Below, in pieces: positions 16,528-44,902 of a stretch of DNA of 64,000 bases. Each line of letters starts with the position of its first letter. Position 1 is the first letter of the stretch. This DNA comes from an uncultured Alphaproteobacteria bacterium (GTDB lineage: Bacteria; Pseudomonadota; Alphaproteobacteria; RF32; CAG-239), in assembly GCA_944393235.1 (NCBI GenBank), contig CALXZJ010000003.1, positions 4,291 to 68,290 on the forward strand, given 5' to 3'. Both the position numbers and the translations under genes were made by a program. The notes beneath the pieces were generated by a model. That model did not search any database, had not been told where the DNA came from, and worked only from the letters and a program-made list of their open reading frames with translations.

Positions 16528-17370
16528 TTATTTATGATTTTGTTTTAAATATGCTTCGTAAGTGTTTTGTAACAGCATGGCAACCGTCATTGGTCCGACG
16601 CCTCCGGGAACGGGGGTGAAAAAAGAGGCTTTTTCAGCGGCGGCGGCTTCAATGTCGCCGCAAAGTTTGCCATTTATGCGATTAATACCAACGTCGATTA
16701 GGACGGCGCCTTCTTTTATCCACTCGGCTTTAACCATTTGCGGGCAACCACAGGCAGCAATGATGATGTCAGCCGTTTTTACCAATTGGGGTAAATTTTG
16801 GGTGTGAATATGTGCAAATGTAACTGTGCAGCCATGCTGCAAAAGCAACATGCCCGCCGGGCGGCCGACGATTTTGGAACAGCCGATGATAAGCGCGTTT
16901 TTGCCGGTTAAATCGATTTTTTCTTTTTCCAAAAGATATAAAATCCCTTTCGGGGTTGCGGCAAGCAGGGCTTTGCTTGAGCCGTTTTGCAAACGACCAA
17001 TGTTTAGCGGGTGAAACCCGTCAACATCTTTTTTAGGGGCGATAAGGTCAAGCAGTTCTTCCTCATTTAAATGTGCCGGCAAAGGCAATTGAACAATCAT
17101 ACCATTGATGTTTTTATTATTATTTAAAGTGATAATTAAATCTGCAATTTCTTTTTGAGAAACATCTTCAGAAAATTTGTGCAAAACGGCATTTATGCCG
17201 ATGGCGGCGGCAGCTTTGAGCTTGTTACGGACATAGATGGTGCTGGCTTCATCATCGCCGACTTGGATGATGGCAAGACCTGGCGCGGAAGGCAGTTCGG
17301 CAATGTCGCTTTTTAAGACGGCTTCCAATTCTTCGGCAGTTTTTTTGCCGTTGATGATTTGTGCACTCAT
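16528..17370 (-). CDS. folD: Methylenetetrahydrofolate dehydrogenase/cyclohydrolase
   Basis: YVRNK, VQLPLP, KDVDGFHP, TPVPGGVGPMT. Confidence 0.97.
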   Translation of the reverse strand: MSAQIINGKKTAEELEAVLKSDIAELPSAPGLAIIQVGDDEASTIYVRNKLKAAAAIGINAVLHKFSEDVSQKEIADLIITLNNNKNINGMIVQLPLPAHLNEEELLDLIAPKKDVDGFHPLNIGRLQNGSSKALLAATPKGILYLLEKEKIDLTGKNALIIGCSKIVGRPAGMLLLQHGCTVTFAHIHTQNLPQLVKTADIIIAACGCPQMVKAEWIKEGAVLIDVGINRINGKLCGDIEAAAAEKASFFTPVPGGVGPMTVAMLLQNTYEAYLKQNHK

Positions 17371-41465: not shown

Positions 41466-42476
41466 GTGATTCAGAAAAATTGGCAAGAACTTATTAAACC
41501 AACTAATTTAGAAGTTACTTCCGGCGAAGGCGGAAATAAAGCTAAAATAGTGGTAGAACCCCTGGAGAGAGGTTTTGGTTTGACTTTGGGCAATGCCTTG
41601 CGCAGAGTTTTGCTCTCCTCGTTGCAGGGTGGTGCGGTAACCGCCATCAAGATTGACGGCGTTCTGCATGAATTTTCAGTTGTTCCGGGCGTCCGTGAAG
41701 ATGTGACGGATATCGTCTTAAACGTTAAAGGGTTGGCAGTGGCTGTTCATAATGAAGGTCAAAAAATAATGACCTTAAAAGCGGAAGGTCCCTGCACGGT
41801 AACGGCAGCAATGATTGAAACCGGTCATGATGTCGAAATTATGAATCCGGATCATGTTATCTGCAATTTGGATGCAGGTGCAAAAATTTCTATGGAATTG
41901 ACGGTGGATACCGGCAAAGGTTATGTTCCGGCTTATCAGAACAAGCCGTCTGATGCACCTATCGGATTGATTGCCGTTGATGCAATTTATTCTCCGGTCA
42001 AGAAAGTGTCTTACAAAGTTGAAAATACTCGTGTCGGTCAAATTACCGATTATGATAAATTAACTTTGGTGGTTGAGACCAACGGCGTCGTTTCGCCGGA
42101 AGATGCCGTTGCTTATGCGGCGCGCATCCTGCAAGACCAACTCAAACCGTTTATTAACTTTGACGAGCCGGAAAATGAAGTTGAAGACGTTAAGGAAGAA
42201 CTACCGTTCAATCGCAATCTCTTGAAAAAGGTTGATGAACTTGAACTTTCCGTTCGTTCCGCCAATTGTCTCAAGAACGATAACATCGTTTATATCGGCG
42301 ATTTGGTACAAAAGACCGAAGCCGAAATGCTCCGTACGCCAAACTTTGGTCGCAAATCTTTGAACGAAATCAAAGAAGTCCTAGCCAAAATGGGCATCCA
42401 TCTCGGTATGGAAACCCCGGGTTGGCCGCCGGAGAATATTGAGGAGTTGATTAAGAAATGTGACGACCACTTCTAA
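41466..42476 (+). CDS. rpoA: RNA polymerase alpha subunit
   Basis: [27 protein letters not shown]. Confidence 0.98.
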
Positions 42477-42586
42477 AAAGTTCGTCTAACGGTCATCTAC
42501 TTGCAAGCCCTGTCACTCATGTACTGTTTTGTGTACACTTCGTGACAGGGCTTGCGGCGTATCTGACGCGTTATCCGAACTTTTTA
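42474..42586. repeat. Palindromic element A (RPE/REP-like) starting at the rpoA stop
   Basis: taaaaagttcg/cgaacttttta outer arms; gcaagccctgtcac/gtgacagggcttgc; central tgtac...gtaca; catct...atctg signature. Confidence 0.8.
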
Positions 42587-42836
42587 AGCGGCTTGACCGA
42601 ATGGTGGTTTGGAGTTGCAAGGAAGCTTTCTGCGTATCTGTCTCATTCTTTGCGCTTCTTGTGTAAAAAGGGGTTCGGCGTATCTGACGCGTTATCCGAA
42701 CTTTTTAAGCGGCTTGTTCGGAGGGTGGCTTGAAGTTGCAAGGAAGCTTTCTGCATATCTGTCTCATTCTTTGCACTTCTTGTGCAAAAAGGGGTTCGGC
42801 GTATCTGGCACATTATCCGAACTTTTTAAGCGGCTT
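42555..42836. repeat. 121-bp tandem repeat (about 2.3 copies)
   Basis: 40-mer cggcgtatctgacgcgttatccgaactttttaagcggctt at 42555, 42676 and (variant) 42797; intervening 81-bp segments nearly identical. Confidence 0.9.
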
Positions 42837-42864
42837 ATTTGTGCTGATGTTTTGAGATGTATTT

Positions 42865-43833
42865 TTATTTAAAGTTGATATGCATGTATAAGGAACCTTC
42901 TTCAATGACATGGGCACAAGCGTTTCGAATTTGGTTTAAGGTTGCTGTTTGAAGTGTTTTATTATTGTCGGTATTATGAAAATAATAGTTGGCTCCTTTT
43001 GAACTCCATATTCTGAGCGTTGTAACATTTTCATATTCTTTGGCATGGTTAATGATGCTTTGACAATAGAATATTTCTGTTTCCCGGTTGTTTAAATTTC
43101 TGGCATTTATGCTGAAAGTTCTGGTTTGTCCATTGCCGATTTCGGAGACAGCCATTTCGTGGCCCAGTTTGTCATAAACATGATTAAGGACGTTCTTTTT
43201 TATCATATCGCCGGGGATGAGATTCATTTTTATAAAATACGGAATATAACCAACTGATGATGTGTGTGAGGATTTAAATTCGTCTTTATATTCATTTGCC
43301 AGATATATTATATAAAATGTTTGTTCCAAACTTTTATTAAGCCGATATTTCATCATGGCTTTAGAGTAACCGGCAATCGCGCCGACGCTTAAAACGCCGA
43401 TAATAGCCAGCACGCCGAGCATCTCCACCATAGAACGACCGCATAACGGCACATCTGCTTGCCTTCTTCTCGCTCGTGTACTATTTTTGTACACGTCGCT
43501 CAAACAAGGCTGCGCATCTGCACCCTTCTTCGGTCGTTCACCTCTTGTGCATAGAGCCGCATCTACTTGCAACTTTTCTCCTCGTGTACCTAATGTTGTA
43601 CACGTCGTCGAAAAGTTACGGCGTATCTGCAGCCCTCTGCGCAAGAATGAAAATAAGAAGGAAATCGCGTATAATGGCACATCTAAAGCGCTTTTACGCG
43701 AAGTCGGAAAATTCACGTACGTCTTTTGTACGCTAGGATTTTCCTCCTCGCTAGAAGGCACTTTATCTGCACCATTCTCCGCAATTTCGTTGTGAGCAGG
43801 TGAAGAGGATTTGAAAAAATTGAATAAATTCAT
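42865..43833 (-). CDS. Type IV pilin-like protein with a repeat-derived leader of about 132 aa
   Basis: G|RSMVEMLGVLAIIGVLSVGAIAGY class III signal (Glu+5), two Cys in the mature domain; AGGAG RBS before the ATG at 43833. Confidence 0.8.
   Translation of the reverse strand: MNLFNFFKSSSPAHNEIAENGADKVPSSEEENPSVQKTYVNFPTSRKSALDVPLYAISFLFSFLRRGLQIRRNFSTTCTTLGTRGEKLQVDAALCTRGERPKKGADAQPCLSDVYKNSTRARRRQADVPLCGRSMVEMLGVLAIIGVLSVGAIAGYSKAMMKYRLNKSLEQTFYIIYLANEYKDEFKSSHTSSVGYIPYFIKMNLIPGDMIKKNVLNHVYDKLGHEMAVSEIGNGQTRTFSINARNLNNRETEIFYCQSIINHAKEYENVTTLRIWSSKGANYYFHNTDNNKTLQTATLNQIRNACAHVIEEGSLYMHINFK
43433..43788. repeat. Three in-frame palindromic elements (B 43433-43539, C 43543-43646, D 43661-43788) inside the pilin leader
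   Basis: Each has catct...atctg and a central gtac-N7/8-gtac hairpin; C shares catctacttgcaa and cggcgtatctg with element A. Confidence 0.8.
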
Positions 43834-43878
43834 AAAAAAGACTCCTAAGAAAAGCCAAAGAACATATACTTGCCCGTC

Positions 43879-43905
43879 ATTCTAAACCGTTTTTTTTTTT
43901 TTCAA
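43879..43905 (-). promoter_or_regulatory. Pilin promoter with an A13 tract in the -35/-10 spacer
   Basis: Minus strand TTG-A13-CGGTT-TAGAAT = TTGAAA-N15-TAGAAT. Confidence 0.6.
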
Positions 43906-43965
43906 TTTTAAAGAGTCTGGTGGGGATAAGTTTCTACTGTTACTTTATCATCATGCCCCAATCCT

Positions 43966-44167
43966 CGTCACCCCATGAGCCGACAACGTCGGCGAATTTA
44001 GGGGTCTCTTCCTATACATGCGACAGACGCCTAACCTCGAGTGCTAAAGCACTCTCAGGGCGTGACAGGAAAGGGGTAAATTGTGTGGTAGACGCCTTAA
44101 CCACCGCGCTATCGCGCGGCGGTGGCGTGACGGGGAAGGAAATCGTGTGGTGGTGGCGTGACGGGGA
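43966..44167. repeat. Cluster of CGTC-type REP-like hairpins
   Basis: cgtcacccc...ggggtct followed by opposite-orientation agacgcc...ggcgtgac units (44025, 44090) and a partial copy at 44152; internal hairpins. Confidence 0.65.
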
Positions 44168-44345
44168 GGGGAAGCGCACTCTTGAGCGTGTGAAGGAAAA
44201 GAGAATCGTGCAGAGGTGGGTAATGGAGAAAAGAGGGACATTTATCTTAAAATATTAATTGGTACAAAATGGTATTGATTGATTAAGCAAGATAAAATTT
44301 GACAAAAACAATATTTTTGCTAAACTTAAACAAAGGAGTTTGAAG

Positions 44346-44594
44346 ATGAATAGCCATAAGGTTGTAAAAAAAGCTGCCGGCGGCATTTTTGGCAGTGCCG
44401 GTTATGTGCTTAAGCTTGCCGAGAGAAATTTGAGCGTTGCTGAAATTGTTTTGAATGGTGCTAGAAATATGGCGGATGGCTTTGTCAAGGCTCCGGAATT
44501 TGGTGTTGGCAAGGCTGCTTTTGATATGACCCAAAAAAGTGTGTCAACTTTGGCGAAAAAGTTTATGAAATATAGTAAAAGGATTGCCAGATAA
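44346..44594 (+). CDS. Hypothetical protein
   Basis: AAGGAG RBS, TTGACA promoter upstream, TAATG overlap with the next gene. Confidence 0.6.
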   Translation: MNSHKVVKKAAGGIFGSAGYVLKLAERNLSVAEIVLNGARNMADGFVKAPEFGVGKAAFDMTQKSVSTLAKKFMKYSKRIAR

Positions 44595-44902
44595 TGGAAC
44601 ATGAAAATGATTATCAGGTTATTATTACCCATGAAGGGACTTTGGTTTTTTTGATTAAAAGCCGTGTGCATGAACCGGATAAGCCGTTTATTTTATATGA
44701 CGGCGGCGATCATGCTACATTTTACCGACGCGAAAATGAAACAATTTTATTAGATTATTTAAATGAAAAAGTTGTTTCTTATTTGCAAAATTCTGAATAT
44801 GTGGTCGTATTTGAGCTTGATGATGATTTGGAAGATGTCTTTCGTGACTATGAAGTTTATGTAAAACATATTAAAAAAAATGTATTTACGGATAGCTTAT
44901 AA
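44594..44902 (+). CDS. Hypothetical protein
   Basis: 102-aa ORF, translationally coupled to the upstream gene, followed by a terminator. Confidence 0.65.
   Translation: MEHENDYQVIITHEGTLVFLIKSRVHEPDKPFILYDGGDHATFYRRENETILLDYLNEKVVSYLQNSEYVVVFELDDDLEDVFRDYEVYVKHIKKNVFTDSL

Follow-up and report, generated by a model that had tools for sequence, protein, structure and literature searches.

A slippage-prone poly-A spacer in the putative promoter cassette of a large type IVb-like pilin gene family from an uncultured gut alphaproteobacterium

The homopolymers known to switch genes from within promoter spacers come mostly from a small number of pathogens (Mycoplasma, Neisseria, Bordetella, and Helicobacter), and variable surface-antigen families usually express one or few of their members at a time. 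In the vlp genes of Mycoplasma, the ON length is 17 A. The spacers of porA and opc in Neisseria meningitidis are poly-G/C, the sabA tract lies beside the -35 box and not in the spacer, and the fim promoters of Bordetella depend on BvgA, with the homopolymer placed between the activator site and the -10 box. The opa genes of Neisseria carry CTCTT repeats in the leader-coding region, which put most copies out of frame.

The closest analogue of the locus described here is the vlp system, a multigene family of variable surface proteins with near-identical promoters that contain A tracts. According to a passage of PMC10502178, which cites Citti and Wise (1995), poly-A is present in the promoter of every vlp member of Mycoplasma hyorhinis, and insertions and deletions switch the genes independently. 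Our case differs in that the genes encode type IVb-like pilins, the organism is a Gram-negative alphaproteobacterium, there are about 70 copies and not a handful, and the modal spacer is 15 bp; that switching takes place here is something that we infer, as is its direction. The closest pilus or fimbrial case is fim2 and fim3 of Bordetella pertussis, in which a single-base change in a promoter homopolymer of ~13-15 nt alters expression (excerpts of PMC10172299 and PMC1891110), a single C deletion in the fim3 promoter being described in the excerpt of PMC10172299. The fim repeat is poly-C and concerns few genes, whereas ours is poly-A and concerns about 70.

At nspA, sabA, and porA/opc, as in our cassette, a homopolymer in or next to the core promoter tunes a surface protein, but these are single loci, whereas the cassette is family-wide. 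An excerpt of PMC6389960 reports that the A tract of Neisseria meningitidis nspA gives low expression with 5A and high expression with 6A, and that -35/-10 spacing was ruled out as the cause. For the T-tract of Helicobacter pylori sabA, the excerpted text of PMC4081817 describes a rheostat with a graded effect on expression.

The poly-A tract and its pilin gene

The window (the whole stretch of DNA that was analysed, 64,000 nucleotides from an uncultured Alphaproteobacteria bacterium) carries the tract on its minus strand, together with the following features.

43906 to 43930, minus strand: conserved upstream part of the cassette, CTTATCCCCACCAGACTCTTTAAAA, with GACTC at 43917-43913 (from column variability)
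43900 to 43905, minus strand: -35-like TTGAAA (family consensus TTGCAA), overlapping the first three A's of the tract; a putative -35 box
43890 to 43902, minus strand: A13 tract, the slippage-prone core of the spacer (from the sequence, the run histogram, and cassette comparison)
43885 to 43889, minus strand: CGGTT, the fixed portion of the spacer, which is 5 nt long in this cassette, 7 nt in clade 2, and 6 nt in genome G057
43879 to 43884, minus strand: -10-like hexamer TAGAAT, present in 60 of the 71 cassette matches of a looser motif
43834 to 43878, minus strand: predicted 5' untranslated region, with AGGAG at 43846-43842 (from the sequence)
42865 to 43833, minus strand: open reading frame of 322 aa (from its translation)
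43438 to 43833, minus strand: in-frame leader of 132 codons, made of repeat modules and ending in G before RSMVEML
42865 to 43437, minus strand: mature type IVb-like pilin of 190 aa, with an invariant N-terminal helix and a variable head

Read on the minus strand, TTG (43905-43903) is followed by A13 (43902-43890), CGGTT (43889-43885), and TAGAAT (43884-43879), with 45 nt between TAGAAT and the ATG at 43833-43831. The first-pass annotation had described this arrangement as TTGAAA-[A10 CGGTT]-TAGAAT with a 15-bp spacer, 45 nt before the start codon, which is correct to the base, and it had rightly picked out A13 as the longest homopolymer in the window, where the next are three runs of 9. With independent base composition, A/T runs at least 13 long are expected 0.011 times in the window and 0.24 times in the genome. 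We infer the two boxes from the sequence; so read, a homopolymer stands between -35 and -10 just upstream of a surface-protein gene.

The hexamers are 15 bp apart, both here and at the family mode, and not 16-18 bp apart as in a canonical sigma-70 promoter. A consensus promoter scan listed eight promoter-like sites against 5.0 expected, and it missed the window's cassette because the spacer is 15 bp and the scan accepts 16-18 bp only. Alternative -35 hexamers at 16-18 bp (ATTGCA, AATTGC, and AAATTG) were rejected, with at most three positions matching TTGACA. As a putative -35 box, the window's TTGAAA is slightly better than the consensus TTGCAA. The 5' untranslated region folds no better than shuffled sequences (z-score 0.64), and an Rfam search of 42400-44700 gave no matches at E values up to 1. 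The same region holds no terminator-like hairpin and no plus-strand gene reads into the tract, and a plus-strand terminator ending in T13 was rejected. GC-rich, hairpin-type repeat modules lie on both sides of the pilin gene (44000-44230 and 42529-42872); in Logan contigs these modules show strain-to-strain joints, with skips of 121-345 nt and back-steps.

Motif models say little about the protein: Pfam holds no family for the window's pilin, and its TIGR02532 scores of 9.4-10.3 bits fall short of the 16.3 cut-off. Inspection of the sequence by eye shows a hydrophobic helix, a G at -1, and an E at +5. A structure model built from 48 aligned sequences (pLDDT 85.9, pTM 0.80) has the long N-terminal helix on a beta-sheet head of the pilin fold, and all five structure matches at E ≤0.001 are type IVb pili. 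They include TcpA (8uhf_E; E 1.4e-4, TM 0.55) and the type IVb pilus of enterotoxigenic E. coli (9iuf_A; E 4.0e-4); Salmonella Typhi PilS (3fhu_A) matches at E 7.6e-3. Elsewhere in the genome are a prepilin peptidase (PF01478, 60.9 bits, contig C5) and three T2SSE ATPases (contig C2). The modelled fold and this context, and not the motif models, justify calling the gene a pilin gene, and the statement in the first-pass annotation that the tract precedes a pilin gene agrees with the predicted type IVb fold of the product.

Features that the window's pilin has in common with TcpA (Vibrio cholerae), CofA and LngA (enterotoxigenic E. coli), and PilS (Salmonella Typhi) are a lengthy leader, the residues G at -1 and E at +5, and an extended N-terminal helix; it differs from them in its low identity (12-15%), its modular leader of 132 aa, and the huge expansion of its family. 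Several of the leader modules end in G just before RS. Seven orthologues from other assemblies (P0001-P0007) are 85-100% identical to it over the mature 190 aa; their leaders are 41-121 aa long, combine the modules in other ways, and have one of two starts (MNLFNFF.. or MIQSIF..).

The protein family comprises 6673 proteins at E ≤1e-5 among 8000 candidates scored. The best 120 of the 6673 lack Pfam domains, and two of these bear the JGI name pseudopilin PulG. Members occur in 40 of 41 genomes and in all 23 genera of the bacterial family, and counts are expanded in several genomes, with 70 matches in the window's own (G000), 54 in G001, 81 in G013, and 37 in G061. Among the matches listed by a literature search for this pilin family in gut Alphaproteobacteria, nothing was relevant.

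A cassette shared across the genome and its relatives

The window's genome is 1.43 Mb in 62 contigs with 41% G+C, and the best matches that hold the window's stretch are recorded as chicken-gut or bird metagenomes. Its A/T runs number 38 at length 9, 7 at length 10, 7 at length 11, 48 at length 12, and 9 at length 13. Of the 78 runs of at least 10, 75 share one context (the exceptions are C8:1337, C11:34721, and C46:8220), and the excess of long runs is thus due to a single repeated cassette. The common context is ..CTTATCCCCACCAGACTCTTTAAAATTGC-A12-CGGTT-TAGAAT.., followed by ~40 nt, GGAG, and ATG. A stricter motif found 67 cassettes, canonically TTGC-A12-CGGTT-TAGAAT, and the looser one gave 71 matches; these pattern searches need exact flanks and leave diverged copies uncounted. 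In the upstream box, most columns vary by 0-15% among 53 copies, with two exceptions at 26% and 55%.

Most cassettes precede genes of ~200 codons that begin MRENG, continue with RSMVEMLGVLAIIGVLSVGAIAGYSKAM, and then diverge; the mature part of the window's gene is of this kind, behind its longer leader. The suggestion in the first-pass annotation that paralogous pilin genes be checked for similar tracts was therefore well placed, given the 67 cassettes in the genome, and the tract is not special to the window's pilin gene, since the same cassette stands before ~70 paralogs. Its interpretation of A13 as a phase-variation switch fares in part. Length is polymorphic, in 18 of the 67 cassettes and in 7 of 21 with identical flanks, and the spacer is below the 16-17-bp norm, both as that interpretation would have it, but A13 itself arose by substitution and not by slippage. 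The window's copy reads TTGA-A12 where the canonical form is TTGC-A12, so that A13 is A12 plus a C-to-A change at 43902. For this reason the box distance of the window's copy is modal and not slipped: TTG to TAGAAT is 18 nt, the mode of the family. Six other cassettes in the genome share the TTGA form. We conclude that the feature is a family-wide, slippage-prone promoter spacer, of which the window holds an ordinary copy at the mode.

The same core promoter also stands before genes other than pilin genes (C2:57802, an A9 copy on C12, C47:379, and C49:59), and in some of these copies the upstream half differs. Two of the genes are paralogs whose products, of 113-120 aa, have a signal peptide plus one more hydrophobic stretch and may be VirB2/TrbC-like; another begins MSYPFYCQ. 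In 21 of 58 cassettes of the genome, TTTTGCAA occurs ~25-35 nt after TAGAAT, and 15 more have TTTTGCA; the window's copy has neither. Because this motif of the 5' untranslated region and the TTGCAAAA found where the tract starts are reverse complements, the -10 box of many cassettes is bracketed by an inverted repeat. A GACTC of the GANTC type is fixed 7 nt upstream of TTG in both cassette clades (43913-43917 on the minus strand in the window). GANTC is the methylation target of CcrM in Alphaproteobacteria, and GACTC in the upstream box may be a site for a regulator or for methylation. Other long simple repeats in the genome are limited to (AC)15 at C4:49261 and a C10 run at position 7352 of contig C10.

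A search with the cassette DNA gave matches in all 11 of the other species of the genus and in the one genome of a second genus, and no match in the 18 further genera sampled. It is present in at least three genomes (G036, G046, and G057) of two further genera. Within the genus it falls into two clades, which differ in their upstream box. Clade 1 (G000, G001, G002, G003, G005, and G010) has TTGC-A12-CGGTT-TAGAAT, with modal copies making up 23/29 in G001, 30/42 in G002, 14/20 in G003, and 2/5 in G005. Clade 2 (G004, G006, G007, G008, and G011) has TTGC-A10-CGCGAGC-TAAAAT, with modal copies at 29/36 in G004, 51/65 in G006, and, among the matches listed, 39/49 in G008; the clade-2 pattern gave 154 matches besides those listed. 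Genome G036, of another genus, follows the clade-1 design (6 of its 11 copies have A12), and G057 has one copy, TTGC-A11-TAAACC-TATAAT. TTGC is kept in all three variants. The length of the tract differs from design to design and the distance between the boxes is constant: TTG and the -10 hexamer are 18 nt apart in all three (1+12+5, 1+10+7, and 1+11+6), which corresponds to a 15-bp spacer.

Variation in tract length

Among the 67 cassettes of the window's genome, 49 have 18 nt from TTG to TAGAAT, 7 have 17, 3 have 16, 3 have 15, 4 have 19, and 1 has 25. The 18 non-modal copies thus comprise 13 that are shorter, four at +1, and one that is far longer (A20, distance 25); none of the 67 is a +2 copy with a 17-bp spacer, the state that the first-pass annotation predicted to be ON. 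In the largest group with identical flanks of 18+13 nt (21 copies), the geometry differs in seven, and variability in the core columns adjoining the tract is 0-13% across the 53 fully flanked copies. Compared across paralogs, the tract evolves more quickly than the sequence on either side. Among the listed copies no run is interrupted, the motif being blind to a break early in the run. Five copies without TTGC have tracts of A15-A21 (C1:1216, C13:11169, C28:17577, C17:30, and C4:71227), and in four of these the total distance from the upstream box to TAGAAT is kept, as if A's had replaced upstream bases.

Seven other species of the genus, and G036, likewise show length polymorphism among near-identical copies. 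Wherever more than five copies of a genome were counted, variants below the modal length were commoner than those above it. Copies above the modal length number 1/29 in G001, 2/42 in G002, 2/20 in G003, 1/36 in G004, 1/65 in G006, and, among the matches listed, 1/49 in G008, and such a small number per genome fits an arrangement in which few genes are ON. The genome encodes MutS and MutL, so the organism is not a constitutive hypermutator, and the instability of the tract is that of a long run in a repair-proficient cell. Neisseria and Haemophilus are repair-proficient bacteria with such switches.

At the window's own locus, four sets of Logan contigs from four studies stop at the repeats and none bridges the tract. 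A metagenome scan with a locus-specific 19-mer returned 36 stretches, none with the cassette, which are chance matches. The cassette repeat breaks short-read assembly (22 of the 67 copies lie within 100 nt of a contig end), and a tract length given to any one locus therefore risks error. The window's upstream flank was found in five of five relatives at 68-76% identity, with the cassette adjoining it in G001 only, in the canonical TTGC-A12 form; species of the genus, ~70% identical at this flank, are too distant for a strain-level comparison.

The state of the modal promoter

The evidence on whether the mode is a working state or a weak or OFF state points both ways. We surveyed -35/-10-like pairs upstream of 1147 crude genes, leaving out the 148 of 1295 upstream regions that have cassette motifs. 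Outside the cassettes there were 32 pairs at spacer 16 and 33 at spacer 17, against ~8 in shuffled sequences, and 17 at spacer 15 against 8. The modal cassette spacer is 1-2 bp below the peak of these other candidate promoters. As 15 bp is shorter than the norm of the organism, transcription at the mode is probably weak or absent.

The genome also has a singleton conserved pilin gene (contig C1, minus strand, near 16598 from the strand's start; leader MKHINENG), and its putative promoter reads TTGCCG-N17-TATAGT, with a 17-bp spacer, behind a GACTAAAG box, which is not of the GANTC type. Single- and low-copy pilin promoters in other genera mostly have N16-17 after GACTAAAG where the boxes are readable. 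From the recurrence of GACTAAAG before low-copy pilin genes, the cassette seems to be derived from this older promoter.

The sister genus g3, represented by G013, bears on the question by analogy. Cassette DNA was not found in G013, and the two of its pilin promoters that were read have an ordinary pair of boxes and no A/T run of 7 or more. Its pilin genes instead carry a (TC)n repeat directly after the ATG, with (TC)7 in 23 of 27 copies, (TC)6 in two, and (TC)8 in two; both (TC)6 copies, and one of those with (TC)8, are at the ends of contigs. At locus L059 (G013:C8:44003-47296), we translated the two copies that start at 1292 and 2209, setting the number of units from 5 to 9. With (TC)7, both meet a stop after 18 codons (an 18-aa ORF), and the full prepilin of 271-274 aa is read only with 6 or 9 units. 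In g3, this is a coding repeat in which the number of units sets the reading frame and differs between copies. The closest analogue is opa, in which a pyrimidine repeat likewise follows the start codon in many paralogs; G013 differs in its dinucleotide TC unit and in the pilin family that carries it, and the arrangement belongs to g3 and not to the window's genome.

The modal (TC)7 of G013 is thus OFF, with ON a single unit away; ~7% of copies are ON, a share to which that of +1 copies in the window's genome (4/67) is similar. Because a sharply held mode is OFF in the sister genus, a sharp mode alone is no proof of ON. By this analogy, the (TC)n repeat is the strongest evidence for a weak or OFF mode in the window's genome.

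We lean, with modest confidence, toward a slippage dial like those of vlp and fim, with a modal state that would be weak or OFF. The tract would be the variable-length spacer core of a sigma-70-type cassette placed before ~70 type IVb-like pilin paralogs, in the order conserved upstream box, TTGCAA, A tract plus 5 nt, and TAGAAT, and its length would set the distance between the promoter boxes. Slipped-strand mispairing at replication would add or remove A's and so shift the box distance gene by gene, such that a few genes at a time (those at +1, and perhaps +2) would be read well. The outcome would be a mutational dial or phase switch for the choice of pilus antigen, and the window's gene, being at the mode, would presumably be low or OFF. 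The strength with which each pilin gene is read probably depends on run length, and a switch at the window's locus is plausible and better motivated than before.

A fixed architecture is the first alternative, and we consider it somewhat unlikely. The promoter would work best at the modal geometry, nearly all copies would be transcribed or would be co-regulated by a factor, and the length variants would be neutral or mildly harmful slips. Of the eight species with enough copies, seven have 70-85% of those copies at the mode (G005 has 2/5), and G036 has 6 of 11; a 15-bp mode kept in eight species, in two clades, and in G036 is therefore no accidental OFF state. The 18-nt distance is compensated between variants, as expected of a functionally required distance, and extension of the run by substitution, as in the TTGA-A12 copies, leaves the geometry unchanged. 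Pilin ORFs are broken or missing at 4 of 11 short-tract copies and 2 of 31 modal copies (Fisher p = 0.03, with paralogs that are not independent; p = 0.08 when a copy without a downstream pilin gene is left out), and this enrichment at short tracts suggests that the deviant copies may be decay. Several points weigh on the other side: 15 bp is below both the norm of the genome and the spacer of the singleton pilin promoter; spacing alone hardly accounts for a pure homopolymer that persists while both flanks diverge; the sharp mode of the sister genus is out of frame and so need not be ON; and ~50 major-pilin-like proteins expressed together would be unusual.

It is considerably less probable that the tract serves to phase a regulator. 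A protein bound at the upstream box (CTTATCCCCACC..GACTC) or on the A tract itself, with its narrow minor groove and rigidity, would be needed for transcription; the tract would set helical phase or be a binding or silencing site, and control would be physiological or epigenetic rather than mutational. Such a role would suit the conserved upstream box (0-15% variability in most columns), the fixed position of GACTC in both clades, the mostly kept distance from box to TAGAAT in the A15-A21 copies without TTGC, and the precedent of Bordetella fim, whose homopolymer lies between the activator site and the -10 box. The candidate regulator is, however, hypothetical, and the box differs between the two clades. 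Slippage may moreover still be the variable input, as in Bordetella fim, and to that extent this alternative overlaps with the slippage dial.

That the run is non-functional, whether by chance, as an assembly artefact, or as the T-run of a terminator on the opposite strand, is very improbable: short-read assemblies of repeats can be chimeric and 22 of 67 cassettes are near contig ends, but 75 of 78 long runs lie in one conserved context where 0.24 runs of 13 or more are expected in the genome, and the cassette is present in 11 of 11 other species of the genus.

A wider view can be put forward tentatively, at somewhat less than an even chance. In this family of gut Alphaproteobacteria, two convergent slippage switches may have been placed on one pilin family, a poly-A spacer in some genera and (TC)n in a sister genus, and would govern the choice of pilus antigen at an unusually large scale. 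In the poly-A genera, each genome of 1.3-1.5 Mb would hold 60-90 type IVb-like pilin genes, each with its own spacer parked one step below the working length; in the sister genus, the (TC)n repeat would be parked one unit out of frame. The findings carry a warning for annotation, as the promoters fall outside 16-18-bp scans, the proteins have no Pfam name, and the cassettes break short-read assemblies. Promoter poly-A and coding (TC)n in two genera of one family would amount to a natural experiment on the origins of switches. If the proposal is true, abundant uncultured commensal Alphaproteobacteria of the gut devote about one gene in 20 to individually gated variable pilins, which would imply strong and continuing selection on the pilus surface of a commensal by host immunity, phages, or competitors.
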